From: Escherichia coli
GTDB lineage: Bacteria > Pseudomonadota > Gammaproteobacteria > Enterobacterales > Enterobacteriaceae
Direction: 5' to 3' (one strand)
Assembly (NCBI RefSeq): GCF_003018255.1
Contig: NZ_CP027440.1
DNA length: 64,000 bases
Made by a program: the position numbers. This document shows positions 9,001 to 15,000 of this stretch, piece after piece; position 1 is the stretch's first letter, and each line of letters begins with the position of its first letter.

Positions 9001-12000
9001 GATGTCCGCCCTTTTTAAAAGTGAATTTTATGATGCGGTGAATGCGGCTATGCGCACGCGGAACAGTTAAACCGACAGGATGTCACGGAAAATCATCATC
9101 CCCTGCTCCGGCGTTAATTGTTAACTGGTTAACGTCACCTGGAGGCACCAGGCACCGCATCAACAAAGTTCATTTGTGAAAATGGAGATAATTATGATTG
9201 CTCATCACTTCGGAACTGATGAAATACCACGTCAGTGCGTGACACCTGGCGATTATGTTCTTCATGAAGGCCGCACATATATCGCTTCAGCAAACAATAT
9301 TGAAAAGAGAAAACTCTATATTCGTAGCCTGACTACAAAAACATGCATTACCGACTGCATGATTAAAGTTTTCATCGGGCGCGATGGCTTACCTGTAAAA
9401 GCAGAGTAGTTGTGACGAGTAATAAAATACACCTTCCATATCTGTAACAGACAAACCGAAATAAAAACCACATTAATTATCAATCACGGGAAAATCAAAA
9501 TGAAAGAACTTGCGCAAAATGAAATTTTTTCCGAAACCAGTCCTGATGCAATAAATGAACTCAAAGAAATTGCAGAACGCATCAGTAAAATATGCAAAAA
9601 ACACAAAATCGACTTTGTATTTTCTTTTTCAGTGCTTACAGAAGTTGGAAATAACGAATATAAAGACAGTCGCTTTGTTTCCTTCGGTTTATATTGCGAA
9701 ACCACCAGCCCATATATTCATGCTGCATCTGAAATTGTCGACAGTCATATTGATCCACAAAGAATTCAGGAACTGACCCTGGCACTTCAACTTCTCAGAG
9801 AAAATGGCGAATGCAACTGCTCTGACTGCCAGCATGAAAAGAAAAAAACAACTCACAAAACAACAAACCAGGCAACCTTACACTGAAATAAAAAATCCGG
9901 CAGCGCAGGCTACCGGACTCCCCCCTGCGTCACTGTATTCGGAGAAATCAGACAAAGGGCCGCTAATTCTAATCCAGCCAGAGGTTTAAATACAATGAGC
10001 GCTGATAAACAAACTTTTGCACTGCACTGCGAAGCAAAAAACGATAAAGTCAGAAAACGCCTTGGCATCAAAGGCGGTTTTTTCTGGGCTGATACCAGAA
10101 AACTTTCTGTCGCAGTTTCCCGCTGCATTGCAGCCATGGACGATGCAGGCTACGACGAGGATGATTTCAAAAAACCCGTTCGCGTAAATTTCCCCGTCGT
10201 GAATGACCTTCCACCGGAAGGCGTGTTTGATACTGAATTCTGCAACCGCTATGAAAAAGGCGGGGAAGATGGCATCACCATGATGGCAATCCCCTTCGAT
10301 GACAACATCAACGGTGAAGATGCCACAACAGCTGGCGATGACTACGATAACCTGGACGGAACTATTCCGGATGATGTGGAGAAAAGCGAATCCCCGGACA
10401 GCGACGATGACTGTTCTGAGTGTGAAATTCCCGTCGCCACTCTGAGCCTTACTCATCGCTTCCTTCACCTCTTCTTCTTCAGCAAAGATGAAGATGGAAA
10501 ATACCGGCATCACGCCACACCCGAACAACGAAATAACGTGATCCGTATGGAGATGGACACAGAAGACAGTTACCTTCAGAGCCTGCTTACTGCTGTGCGT
10601 TCACATCCAGAGCTGGATAAGCTGACGAATTATCATCTGGGAAGACTGGCACAATCCGTTGGAAAGGCATTCTCTCACGCAACACCCCGTCATATCAGCC
10701 CGGCCGAATTCGACAAGTTCATCTCCACCTGGATGAAAACAGACTATGTGGATCAGGGATTGCTGGCAAAAGAATGGCAGAAAGGAAATTATGTTACAGG
10801 CATCACTCGTACGCCTTCCGGTGCTAACGCTGGCGGCGGAAATCTTACCGATCGTGGCGAAGGCTTTACCCACAATCAGGCATCACTGGCGCGAGACATT
10901 GCCACTGGCGTTCTGGCCCGTTCAATGGATGTGGATATTTATAACCTGCACCCTGCACATGCAAAACGCGTTGAAGAAATCGTTGCAGAGAATAAACCGC
11001 CCTTTTCTGTTTTCCGTGACAAATTCATCGCCATGCCCGGTGGGCTGGATTATTCCCGCGCCATTGTGGTGGCTTCAGTGAAAGAAGCACCAATTGGCAT
11101 TGAGGCTATCCCGGCGCGCGTGACTGAATATCTCAACAAAGTGTTGACCGAAACCGATCACTCTAACCCGGATCCGGAAATCGTGGAAATTGCCTGCGGT
11201 CGCTCATCAGCCCCGATGCCGCAGCGCGGAACAGCAGAAGAGATACATGACGATGAAGAAAAGCAGCAAACATCGGACGCAATGTCTAATGAACAGGCAG
11301 CGCCTGAATCAGTGGAAGAAATTCCAGTTAAACATAATGCGGACACGCAATCACTGGAAAATGTCTCATCTGTAGAAACGAAATACCAGGAACTGAGAGC
11401 AGAACTCTATGAAGCCAGGAAAAACATTTTGCCCAAAAATCCTGTCGATGCAGACAAATTGCTGGCTGCCTCTCGTGGGGAGTTCGTTGAAGGCATCAGC
11501 GACCCAACCGACCCGAAGTGGGTGAAGGGGATCCAGACTCGCGACACTGAGGACCAGAATCAATCCAAAGTGGAACAAAACAGCCCGGATACGCAACAAA
11601 ACGGACCAGAAGAGCAACAGCCTGGGCCAGTAATGCAACAGGAAGTGGAAAAGGTTTGCACCGCATGCGGTCAGAACAGTGGCGGGCATTGCCCTGACTG
11701 TGGTCCAGTAATGGGAGATGAAACTTACGCTGAAACTTTTGGAGAAAATGAGACCGCTGCTGGAGATGACCAGGCACAAATGAAGAATGAATACATTCAG
11801 AAAAATGCTGTTGATACAACTCAGGAACACGATTCGGTTGTTCACATCGATCCAGATAGTGATGCTTCTGACAATAATGATGATTCAGAGCAAGCAGATT
11901 TCGACTGGAAAAGGCAACTCGTGCTTGCAGCCGTCTATGGTTTGTGCGCAAACCCTGCATGCGTCGCAACAGCGCCAGCAATCCCTGATATCGCAATCAT

Positions 12001-15000
12001 GATTGCCAACAGGCTTGAAAATTTTGGAGGTGATAAATCATGAATGCCTGGCTTATCCCCGATCGCATTGAAGAGCAGTCATGGGCACGACACTACCGGC
12101 AAATTACCCGTGAAGAAAATGAGACTGAACTGGCGGACGACCTGGAAAAAGGTCTGCCCCAGCACCTGTTTGAATCGCTGTGCATCGATAATCTGCAACG
12201 TCATGGAGCCAGCAAAAAAGCCATTGCCCGTGCATTTGATGACGATGTCGATTTTCAGGAACGCATGGCAGAACACATCCGGTACATGGTTGAAACCATT
12301 GCCCGCCACCAGATTTATATTGATTCAGAGGTATAAACCAGATGAGTACAGCTCTCGCAACGCTGGCAGGGAAGCTGGCTGAACGTGTCGGCATGGATTC
12401 TGTCGACCCACAGGAACTGATCACCACTCTTCGCCAGACTGCATTTAAAGGTGATGCCAGCGATGCGCAGTTCATCGCATTGCTGATCGTTGCCAACCAG
12501 TACGGCCTTAATCCATGGACGAAAGAAATTTACGCCTTCCCTGATAAGCAGAACGGCATCGTTCCGGTGGTGGGCGTTGATGGCTGGTCCCGCATTATCA
12601 ACGAAAACCAGCAGTTTGATGGCATGGACTTTGAGCAGAACGATGAATCCTGTACATGTCGGATTTACCGCAAAGACCGTAATCACCCGATCTGCGTTAC
12701 CGAGTGGATGGATGAATGTCGCCGCGCACCATTCAAAACCCGCGAAGGCAGAGAAATCACGGGGCCGTGGCAGTCGCATCCCAAACGGATGTTACGGCAT
12801 AAAGCGATGATTCAGTGTGCCCGTCTGGCCTTCGGATTTGCTGGTATCTATGACAAGGATGAAGCCGAACGCATTGTCGAAAATACCGCATATACTACAG
12901 AACGTCAGCCGGAACGCGACATCACCCCGGTTAACGAAGAGACCATGTCGGAAATTAACGCCCTTCTTACTTCCATGGAAAAAACGTGGGATGACGACCT
13001 CTTGCCGCTCTGTTCTCAGATATTTCGCCGCTACATTCGGGCGTCGTCAGAACTGTCCCAGGCCGAAGCAGAGAAGGTTCTTGGATTCCTGAAACAGAAA
13101 GCCACGGAGCAGAAGGTGGCAGCATGACACCAGAAATTATCCTACAACGTACCGGGATCGACGTGAGAGGTGTCGAGCAGGGAGATTATGCATGGCAAAA
13201 ATTACGGCTCGGGGTCATCACAGCTTCAGAAGTTCACAACGTGATAGCCAAACCCCGCTCCGGAAAGAAATGGCCTGACATGAAAATGTCCTACTTCCAC
13301 ACCCTGCTGGCTGAGGTCTGCACGGGTGTGGCCCCGGAAGTTAACGCCAAAGCCCTGGCATGGGGAAAACAGTACGAGAACGACGCCAGAGCCCTGTTTG
13401 AGTTTACTTCCGGCGTGAATATTACTGAATCCCCGATCATCTATCGCGACGAAAGTATGCGTACCGCCTGCTCTCCGGATGGATTATGCAGTGACGGCAA
13501 CGGCCTTGAGCTGAAATGTCCGTTTACCTCCCGGGATTTCATGAAATTCCGGCTCGGTGGTTTCGAGGCCATAAAATCAGCTTACATGGCCCAGGTGCAA
13601 TTCAGCATGTGGGTGACTCGAAAAGATGCCTGGTACTTCGCCAACTATGACCCGCGCATGAAGCGTGAAGGCCTGCATTATGTCGTGGTCGAGCGGGATG
13701 AAAAATACATGGCTGGTTTTGACGAGATGGTGCCGGAGTTCATCGAAAAAATGGACGAAGCACTGGCTGAAATTAGTTTTGTATTTGGGGAGCAATGGCG
13801 ATAGCCGTAGCAACGAGGTGCAAATGATATGACAGTTAAGGAATGCTACCGGTGTTCGTCCTGATCCAGCGCGGGCAATCTTTCGTCGATGCCAACAACT
13901 ATCCGGTGGAAATCTGCAAGGTAACTCTTACTCAGGTGATCTACCGAAGACTCGACGGCAGAACCCGAGCCACTTCAATTGGTGCATTTAATGAAGAATT
14001 TGAGCGAGTCGACCACAACGAACTACACATGATTAAAGCGGAAATTGAGAAGGAAATGCATATTGCCAGCCTTCGAAAAATGCGACGTACATCAATCAAC
14101 TGACAACCGCCTTCGGGCGGTTTTTAATGGCAAAAATATGGATTCACACAGTATCACCCTCAAAGAGGCCTGTCAGTTTCTCAAGATATCAAGGCCAACA
14201 GCTGTTAACTGGATACGAACGGGCCGACTACAGGCAACACGAAAAAATTCTTCCGGTAAAAGATCACCTTATCTCACAACCCGGCAAGCCTGCATTGCAG
14301 CACTTCATTCACCGCTGCATACTGTCCAGGTGAGCGCGGGTGATGGCATAACAGAGGAAAGAAAATGTCACTCTTCCGCAGAGGTGAAATATGGTACGCC
14401 TCGTACTCGCTCCCGGGCGGGAAGCGAATTAAGGAGTCTCTTGGCACAAAGGACAAGCGGCAAGCTCAGGAGTTGCACGACAAGCGAAAAGCAGAACTCT
14501 GGCGAGTAGACAGACTGGGGGATATGCCAGATGTCACTTTCGAAGAAGCCTGCCTGAGATGGCTTGAGGAAAAAGCCGACAAGAAATCCATCGATTCCGA
14601 TAAATCCAGAATCGCATTCTGGATTGAGCATTTCGAGGGAATAAGGATTAAGGATATATCGGAGGCAATGATCTACTCAGTTATCAGCAAAGCGTATAAC
14701 CGAAAAACAAAGGAGAGATGGAAGTTGCAGGTGGAGGCTGCATTAAGAAAAGGGAAAGAACCACCAGCCTATATACCTAAATCGGTGAGCACGCAAACAA
14801 AAGCAACACACCTGGCAATGATCAAGGCTATTCTGCGCGCCGCAGAGCGAGACTGGAAATGGCTTGAAAAAGCACCTGTAATCAAAATACCTGCCGTAAA
14901 AAACAAACGCGTGAGATGGCTGGAAAAAGAAGAAGCCAGGAGACTCATTGATGCATGTTCTGATCCCCTGAAATCTGTAGTTAAATTTGCACTGGCAACT

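Follow-up and report, generated by a model that had tools for sequence, protein, structure and literature searches.

Exonuclease VIII, the RecE protein of the Rac prophage of Escherichia coli K-12, carries a PD-(D/E)XK nuclease of 5'-3' polarity in its C-terminal part (residues 605-866; structure 3H4R; PF12684). Passages on RecE in PMC11611040 and PMC11610958 describe the N-terminal region of the protein as having an unknown function and as dispensable for the nuclease and recombination activities and, citing Fu 2012, as enhancing or being needed for efficient linear-linear recombination. A part of the work of Sawitzke et al. (bioRxiv 10.1101/2022.01.13.476211) reports that linear assembly by RecET is left unchanged by Gam, and recalls that RecE had earlier been proposed to contain a Gam-like activity. 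A nuclease-less protein called 'RecE-2' has been recognised in lambdoid Rec modules by structure prediction (PMC12315714, Genome Res 2025). The main-text passages naming it mention it only in passing, as 'distantly related' to the RecE proteins of Rac and Gifsy-1, with no known role and encoded by the early-left operon. Rec modules with DnaQ-like nucleases are also mentioned there, without analysis.

The present analysis considers a window of 64,000 nucleotides of E. coli DNA (RefSeq assembly GCF_003018255.1, contig NZ_CP027440.1), in which the 682-residue ORF, gam, bet, exo, kil and the integrase described below lie on the plus strand. We have identified in it an open reading frame (ORF) of 682 amino acids (9995-12043), supported by the ORF call, by RecE homology and by a RefSeq coding sequence, which comprises a RecE N-terminal module without a nuclease domain and ends in a conserved tail. 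This gene represents a branch of the RecE family that lacks the nuclease, is conserved and is under selection. The gene is followed by gam, bet and exo genes of lambda type, and it fits the description given for 'RecE-2' in the above passages in being related to RecE, devoid of a nuclease and early-left, a correspondence that is by description only.

A nuclease-less branch of the RecE family

The original prediction, made from the DNA sequence of the window, held that the 682-residue protein corresponds to the N-terminal region of RecE and stops, overlapping the start of gam, before any nuclease domain; each of these points is borne out. A BLASTP comparison with K-12 RecE (taken from NC_000913) aligns residues 51-584 with RecE 43-546 at a sequence identity of 54% (E-value 1e-176), which is far beyond chance. 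In Pfam the protein matches PF06630 (E-value 1.7e-11, residues 53-197) and, apart from a weak match to DZR, no other domain, nucleases included. The NCBIfam equivalog of RecE, NF007259, gives 744.7 bits against a curated cut-off of 1269, with only profile positions 1-593 of 877 aligned. The RecE nuclease domain sought in the 682-residue protein finds no Pfam match and no alignment past RecE residue 546, and a PDB sequence search with the protein returns no match; as a positive control, residues 605-866 of K-12 RecE match the nuclease structure 3H4R with an E-value of 3e-180. Since the C-terminal PD-(D/E)XK nuclease is absent, the protein cannot be exonuclease VIII, and the database name 'exodeoxyribonuclease VIII' that it bears appears to be a misnomer.

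The likeness to Rac RecE includes an identity of about 78% in the core (residues 231-410), the same zinc-ribbon motif and the same place in a Rac-like early-left operon after kilR. The window protein differs in possessing a tail of 45 residues in place of the nuclease domain, and no RecT is found directly downstream of its gene, where gam, bet and exo stand instead. The closest nuclease-bearing counterpart found is a RecE-family protein of 1049 residues from E. coli 95JB1 (WP_000102202.1), accompanied by a RecT of 350 residues. Residues 1-584 of the window protein are 85% identical to this protein and 51% identical to K-12 RecE. Past a shared 'MGDxTYxxTFxE' the 95JB1 protein, unlike that of the window, proceeds to a Rac-like linker and a different PD-(D/E)XK subtype, and the identity drops to about 10% over residues 585-634. 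This divergence places the breakpoint at residue 584/585 (about 11747), so that the mapping by alignment suggested in the original prediction could be accomplished.

The 682-residue protein holds the complete RecE N-terminal module, comprising an α/β domain, an acidic linker, a helical core and a mid helix with zinc ribbon. A structure was modelled by AlphaFold2 (AF2) from an alignment of 38 sequences. The N-terminal α/β domain (residues 1-100; 9995-10294) is made up of strands and helices with a predicted local confidence score (pLDDT) of about 80-90, is confidently modelled over residues 4-100, and is overlapped in its C-terminal half by the PF06630 match; it shares 88% identity with the nuclease-bearing 95JB1 protein and 29% with K-12 RecE. 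A disordered acidic linker leads to the conserved all-helical core (residues 141-410; 10415-11224), also confidently modelled, which contains an invariant Gly-rich loop and the invariant polar residues D286, R287, D314, Y316, Y353, S354, R355, K363, E386, T387, D388 and H389. Modelled by itself the core attains a pLDDT of 85 and is predicted to have an all-helical, repeat-like architecture. Residues 410-635 are mostly disordered in the model, with a helix pair and a zinc ribbon of low confidence. The latter corresponds to a zinc-ribbon-like CxxC-x7-CxxC motif (C555, C558, C566 and C569; 11657-11701), whose cysteines do not vary among the E. coli forms, Rac RecE included, and which gives the weak DZR match at low pLDDT; no such motif is visible on reading the Cedecea sequence. 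It is followed by a hypervariable acidic linker (residues 585-634; 11747-11896), predicted to be disordered, in which the similarity to nuclease-bearing RecE relatives ends. A Foldseek search with the whole model finds nothing below an E-value of 0.9 in the PDB, and in AFDB50 the 50 matches listed are all RecE-family entries, with no relative of known function among them. Profiles of the core and the tail find no match in PDB sequences either.

The C-terminal tail (residues 637-678, DWKRQLVLAAVYGLCANPACVATAPAIPDIAIMIANRLENFG; 11903-12028) is predicted by AF2 to form a helical hairpin over residues 638-677, with helices at 638-652 and 660-677 (pLDDT 60-82). Its motif, W-K-R-Q-L-V-x-A-A-V-Y-G-L-C-A-N-P-A…, belongs to a stretch of about 45 residues. 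A tail-bearing RecE-N subfamily has been defined in the present analysis by the motif W/Y/F-[KR]-Q-x-[LV]-x-I/L-A-A-x-x-G-L-C-A-N-P-A … [DE]-I-x-x-M-A, which in the 682-residue protein occurs after the RecE-N core and within the last 50 residues or so. The subfamily overlaps phrog_26058 and part of phrog_607. The former, annotated as 'unknown function', has the same core-plus-tail layout: the core of the window protein (residues 175-424) matches it and the tail matches its C-terminus. Pfam families PF27430 and PF27432 also occur on relatives of the 682-residue protein.

The conservation of the tail contradicts the view, implied in the original prediction, that a junction merely cut the ORF short. 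Among the short forms the hydrophobic tail (residues 635-682) is 69-92% identical. Between four lineages its ratio of non-synonymous to synonymous substitution rates (dN/dS) is 0.06-0.12, at dS values of 0.7-1.8 that are saturating, and the tail is therefore conserved as protein and not as a leader of gam. The dN/dS of the whole gene is 0.12-0.24 in the tail form. No such tail has been seen in the nuclease-bearing forms examined. A protein of a Rac-like prophage of E. coli M8 tracks Rac RecE as far as '…DCSDETGE' (about RecE residue 585) and then continues into the same tail.

A search of 1.84 billion representative proteins with the tail profile gave 11 matches, of which the ten retrieved are C-termini of RecE-N proteins or fragments of them, the eleventh (P0128, 2130 residues) having been left out of the retrieval. 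They include proteins of Cedecea (726-736 residues) and Buttiauxella (491 residues) whose identity to the window protein is about 30% over the full length and 35-40% within the core. A stand-alone tail gene, or a tail in other protein families, was not found, the PHROG matches outside the family being not significant, and a tblastn search of phage genomes revealed only the same arrangement.

Distribution and alternative C-terminal ends

Of 5426 complete E. coli genomes, 80 contain the whole block of 3.8 kb comprising the 682-residue gene, gam, bet and exo at a coverage of at least 80%. Further carriers are O104:H4 strains, the Shigella phages 75/02 Stx and POCJ13 and the Escherichia phages phiSTEC1589-Stx1c and PhiR5_2, and the survey of prophages proposed earlier for the same junction has thus a positive outcome, phages carrying Shiga toxin (Stx) genes included. 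At the protein level more than 120 clusters at 90% identity have been found, with 680-700 residues, 79-100% identity and PF06630 as the only family. The occurrence in many genomes, phages and clusters demonstrates an established gene and not a singleton. In the same set of complete genomes the core DNA is far more widespread, being encoded in 4728 of them with up to nine copies per genome, under the annotations 'recE', 'PD-(D/E)XK…', 'exonuclease' and '3'-5' exonuclease'; the tail DNA is found in 105.

Tail-bearing loci of Escherichia type in IMG/VR number 67, and in 65 of these Gam directly follows the tail-bearing ORF. Bet and Exo come after Gam in about 54 and a Sak4-like AAA ATPase in 7, and none of the 67 tail-bearing ORFs has a nuclease domain. 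Viewed from Gam, the tail form stands upstream in 36 of the 70 loci analysed (out of 80 matches listed) and small kil-like or other ORFs in the remaining 34; a nuclease-bearing RecE is upstream of Gam in none of the 70.

The Rac-like prophages in which an AAA ATPase of 365 residues follows the tail form and Gam (L007:5139-6538; also L069, L070, L072-L075 and L093) have no exonuclease gene at these loci. The ATPase belongs to phrog_1366 and has a weak match to the Sak4-like annealase family phrog_124, so that these loci hold a module of Gam and a Sak4-like protein. At another locus (L085:5102-7434) three minus-strand ORFs of 512, 115 and 133 residues, resembling an IS66-type insertion by their sizes only, stand downstream of gam in place of the annealase and exonuclease genes. 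The tail-form genes at L005:3146-4975 and L007:3221-4993 have been flagged as pseudogenes 'missing C-terminus' by the RefSeq Prokaryotic Genome Annotation Pipeline (PGAP). Their frames are intact through the conserved tail to the stop overlapping gam, and the flags are an artefact of annotation, arising from the comparison with full-length RecE.

Prophages of Cedecea and Buttiauxella, occupying yebY and ttcA sites, encode an intact tail-form gene followed directly by Rrf2-like or DUF1187 genes, an excisionase and an integrase. No Gam, exonuclease, annealase or RecT is present after the tail form in these prophages, and the dN/dS of the whole gene is 0.12-0.17; the gene is therefore kept without any phage recombinase. 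The occurrence of the tail architecture in divergent genera without gam, bet and exo or recT shows that this is an old and autonomous gene type.

In a scan of one genome per species the core is found only in Enterobacteriaceae (13 loci), with four C-terminal arrangements. The N-terminal module is followed by a RecE-type PD-(D/E)XK nuclease and then RecT in E. coli, by a second PD-(D/E)XK subtype and then RecT in Citrobacter, by a DEDDh 3'-5' exonuclease (PF16473, Pfam E-value 1e-67) in Kosakonia, Kluyvera, Leclercia and Pluralibacter, and by the tail in Buttiauxella. The DEDDh (Rv2179c-like, PF16473) proteins of lambdoid and Rac-like prophages share the N-terminal domain and helical core of the window protein and differ in having a 3'-5' exonuclease of unrelated fold at the C-terminus and no tail. 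The polarity of this exonuclease is opposite to that of RecE, and the same platform therefore bears nucleases of unrelated folds. The fusion has been located at L018:7251-9725 of Kosakonia and at L017, L019, L020, L022 and L024, and also in many E. coli genes annotated as 'exonuclease' or '3'-5' exonuclease'.

Comparison of these sequences demonstrates a module that has recombined with different C-terminal effectors at the acidic linker. At least four C-terminal ends argue for recurrent domain shuffling at this linker, and not for a single swap. The original prediction of one event that exchanged the nuclease and RecT for the Red system is not sustained, since the tail form exists in divergent genera without Red and the ends are several; nor can the direction that it assumed be upheld, as loss and gain of the nuclease cannot be told apart by the present comparison.

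Two further forms have been observed. An ORF of 474 residues in Citrobacter braakii (L012:7635-9059) has the RecE-N core in frame with the C-terminal 85 residues of RecT and is probably a deletion derivative; entries of 474 residues from Shigella flexneri and C. braakii are also present in AFDB50. In long Citrobacter forms (L015:785-4072 and proteins P0141-P0148) the first helical sub-domain of the core is present twice, as two matches of the core query, which suggests a repeat-like scaffold.

The locus and its mosaic DNA

The stop codon of the 682-residue ORF overlaps the start codon of gam in the tetranucleotide ATGA (12040-12043), and a GGAGG ribosome-binding site for gam read from the sequence (12026-12030) is embedded in the last tail codons, the whole arrangement spanning 12026-12043. 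By these sequence features the gene is translationally coupled to the lambda-type gam-bet-exo module. A Shine-Dalgarno-like AGAGG precedes the ATG of the 682-residue ORF itself, and the junction 'GAAAATTTTGG.G' at the boundary of tail and gam is common to the M8-type lineage. In-frame stops immediately 5' of the gam ATG in the window permit only the short form of Gam.

The three genes downstream are as close to lambda as had been noted earlier. The short gam (98 residues; 12040-12336) encodes a putative RecBCD inhibitor, a homologue that is 82% identical to lambda Gam 41-138 (phrog_259, E-value 6e-55). The product of bet (261 residues; 12342-13127), a single-strand annealing protein, is 94% identical to lambda Bet, and that of exo (226 residues; 13124-13804), the lambda 5'-3' exonuclease, is 95% identical to lambda Exo with a TIGR03033 domain match. 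With the order gam-bet-exo and a Bet score of 170 bits against a TIGR01913 cut-off of 77, the genes constitute a lambda Red module, in which the order and the overlaps are those of lambda. The locus is unlike lambda upstream, where lambda has kil and cIII before gam and a long Gam is annotated, and the window has the 682-residue gene.

At the nucleotide level Rac-like DNA is represented by kilR (9000-9429, 84% identity) and the recE core (10751-11739, 77%), and lambda-like DNA by 12061-13802 (92%). The intervening 322 nucleotides, from 11739 to 12061, resemble neither, and the junction with the lambda-like DNA is about 20 nucleotides into gam, in effect at the boundary of the gene. The mosaic that had been proposed thus stands as far as it joins Rac-like to lambda-like DNA and retains the N-terminal part of RecE without its nuclease; as a simple truncating swap it does not. 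The tail itself does not come from lambda, and it occurs on Rac-like prophages. An origin of the tail from the N-terminus of lambda GamL or from kil was considered and rejected, no DNA similarity being present upstream of 12061 and none being apparent on reading both proteins.

E. coli 2009C-3133 has an identical region, for which RefSeq gives the same boundaries of the 682-residue ORF, gam, bet and exo and assigns them to the left arm of a lambdoid prophage integrated into ynfG. The genes are annotated there in the order S24 repressor, N, two hypothetical genes, Rac-type kil, one hypothetical gene, 'RecE family exodeoxyribonuclease', Gam, Bet, Exo, DUF4222, a helix-turn-helix remnant, integrase and truncated ynfG. 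In the window the Rac-type kil, an FtsZ inhibitor (9176-9409; NF008465, 153 bits), is upstream in the same leftward early operon, and the integrase (14365-15528, as annotated by RefSeq in 2009C-3133) lies at the prophage end abutting the truncated ynfG. By the same annotation the helix-turn-helix remnant, an annotated pseudogene, is at 14138-14203 upstream of int, and ynfG, truncated at its 5' end as a result of the prophage insertion, is at 15581-16120 beside int. An early-left ORF of 238 residues (7758-8474) is a member of phrog_2539, a family of unknown function. It is rich in Cys in its central part and gives E-values of 1e-6 to 1e-10 with the PHROGs of endonuclease VII, HNH and Lar-like restriction alleviation. 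A terminator-like hairpin with a T-run at the 5' end of the 682-residue ORF (10058-10076), with a mirror site on the opposite strand, has been dismissed because such sites are no more frequent in the region than in shuffled sequence.

Possible role of the RecE N-terminal module

The chances are about even, in our estimate, that the conserved nuclease-less gene acts as a non-catalytic accessory in phage recombination or the handling of DNA ends, and not as an exonuclease. The N-terminal module would then serve as a non-catalytic platform that acts either at DNA ends or on the machinery by which the host processes them. The nuclease of RecE would be carried by the module covalently, in cis; in the tail form separate phage proteins would act in trans, Gam for the protection of ends and Exo-Bet or a Sak4-like protein for resection and annealing. 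The tail would probably stand in for the oligomeric nuclease domain by mediating self-association or docking.

Several observations weigh against such an accessory role. There is no direct evidence for the binding of DNA ends, Exo, Bet, Gam or a host protein, the core is without a fold or sequence relative of known function, and no phage gene accompanies the tail in every context. The gene product is not an obligate subunit of Red, because the tail form of Cedecea and Buttiauxella lacks Gam, Exo and an annealase, and lambda itself functions without the 682-residue gene. About 10 of the 67 tail copies in IMG/VR are disrupted, and the many invariant polar residues of the core could be those of an enzyme in place of a scaffold.

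Among the alternatives, the N-terminal module could be an autonomous antagonist of host nucleases or an anti-defence factor, co-inherited with Gam as a two-part counter-nuclease unit that is independent of Exo and Bet. We regard this as rather unlikely. It agrees with the old proposal of a Gam-like function in recE and the dispensability of Gam for linear assembly by RecET, both recorded in the above part of the work of Sawitzke et al., and with the retention of the tail form in prophages free of recombinases. The linkage to Gam, which holds whichever annealase comes next (Bet-Exo or Sak4-like), and the early-left position among host-takeover genes such as kil are also in its favour. However, the neighbouring Gam would be redundant if the module already inhibited RecBCD, PADLOC gives no match to a defence or anti-defence family, and searches reveal no resemblance to Gam, Abc2 or any other known inhibitor. 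Fusion to exonucleases of both polarities, moreover, suits a platform for delivery better than an inhibitor.

A bolder form of the platform idea, which we put forward as doubtful, makes the N-terminal module an autonomous DNA-end machine that holds or protects two ends or captures a host complex, its C-terminus being an exchangeable 'effector socket' and the tail docking a nuclease in trans. The 682-residue protein may accordingly be a natural split RecE, in which the tail is a docking or oligomerisation peptide for a nuclease supplied in trans by lambda Exo or a host exonuclease.

It is improbable that the helical core has an enzymatic activity of a kind so far undescribed, with the invariant D, R, Y, S, K and E-T-D-H residues and the Gly-rich loop forming the active site and the nuclease or tail being secondary. 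Invariant polar residues are unusually many for sequences only 35-40% identical in the core, and the SGANAGGG loop is conserved. Yet no similarity of fold or profile to any enzyme is detected, the predicted architecture is all-helical and repeat-like, and the duplication of the first helical sub-domain in Citrobacter is typical of scaffolds.

The hydrophobic tail as a C-terminal membrane anchor, tethering the module and its partners to the inner membrane, has still less to recommend it, and is kept as a minor possibility because the hydropathy is borderline in the Escherichia forms only. In these the Kyte-Doolittle maxima over 19 residues are 1.6-1.75, with few charges over about 30 residues; the distant orthologues, with maxima of no more than 1.05-1.5, bear acidic residues in helix two, the segment has an invariant Asn-Pro at its middle, and AF2 predicts two short helices of 15 and 18 residues, not a long one.

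That a recent junction truncated RecE, with Red replacing the nuclease and RecT and the ORF left incidental and possibly functionless, is hardly credible: the DNA is a mosaic, Rac-like to 11739 and lambda-like from 12061, a very close nuclease-bearing relative exists (85% identity over residues 1-584) and some copies are called pseudogenes by PGAP or are disrupted in IMG/VR, but the tail has a dN/dS of about 0.1 and the whole gene one of 0.12-0.24, the length of the ORF is kept across 79-100% identity, the same architecture exists without Red in Cedecea and Buttiauxella at about 30% overall identity (35-40% in the core), the PGAP 'pseudogenes' are intact ORFs, and the excess of synonymous changes speaks against a non-coding reason for the conservation of the tail.

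The arrangement itself is present in many published genomes under the mistaken name of exonuclease VIII, and earlier mention has been made of RecE-like proteins without a nuclease, so that the novelty is modest. The tail, its selection, the linkage to Gam and the alternative ends are absent from the main-text passages of PMC12315714 naming RecE, RecE-2 and DnaQ, and full-text searches of the literature found no description of a tail-bearing RecE-N family. The analysis corrects a systematic mis-annotation, in which tail forms of E. coli and Shigella, including those of Stx-converting phages from outbreak lineages such as O104:H4, are named 'exodeoxyribonuclease VIII' or called pseudogenes.

A free-standing module that is under selection, associates with nucleases of opposite polarity or with none and keeps the company of Gam indicates that the RecE N-terminal module has a function of its own. 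If the 682-residue protein were a split RecE, Red supplemented with its gene would become capable of RecET-like linear-linear recombination, otherwise a property of full-length RecE alone, and the decades-old puzzle of the RecE N-terminus would be explained. The conserved tail, the linkage to Gam and the swapping of effectors make the function of this region of RecE approachable by experiment.

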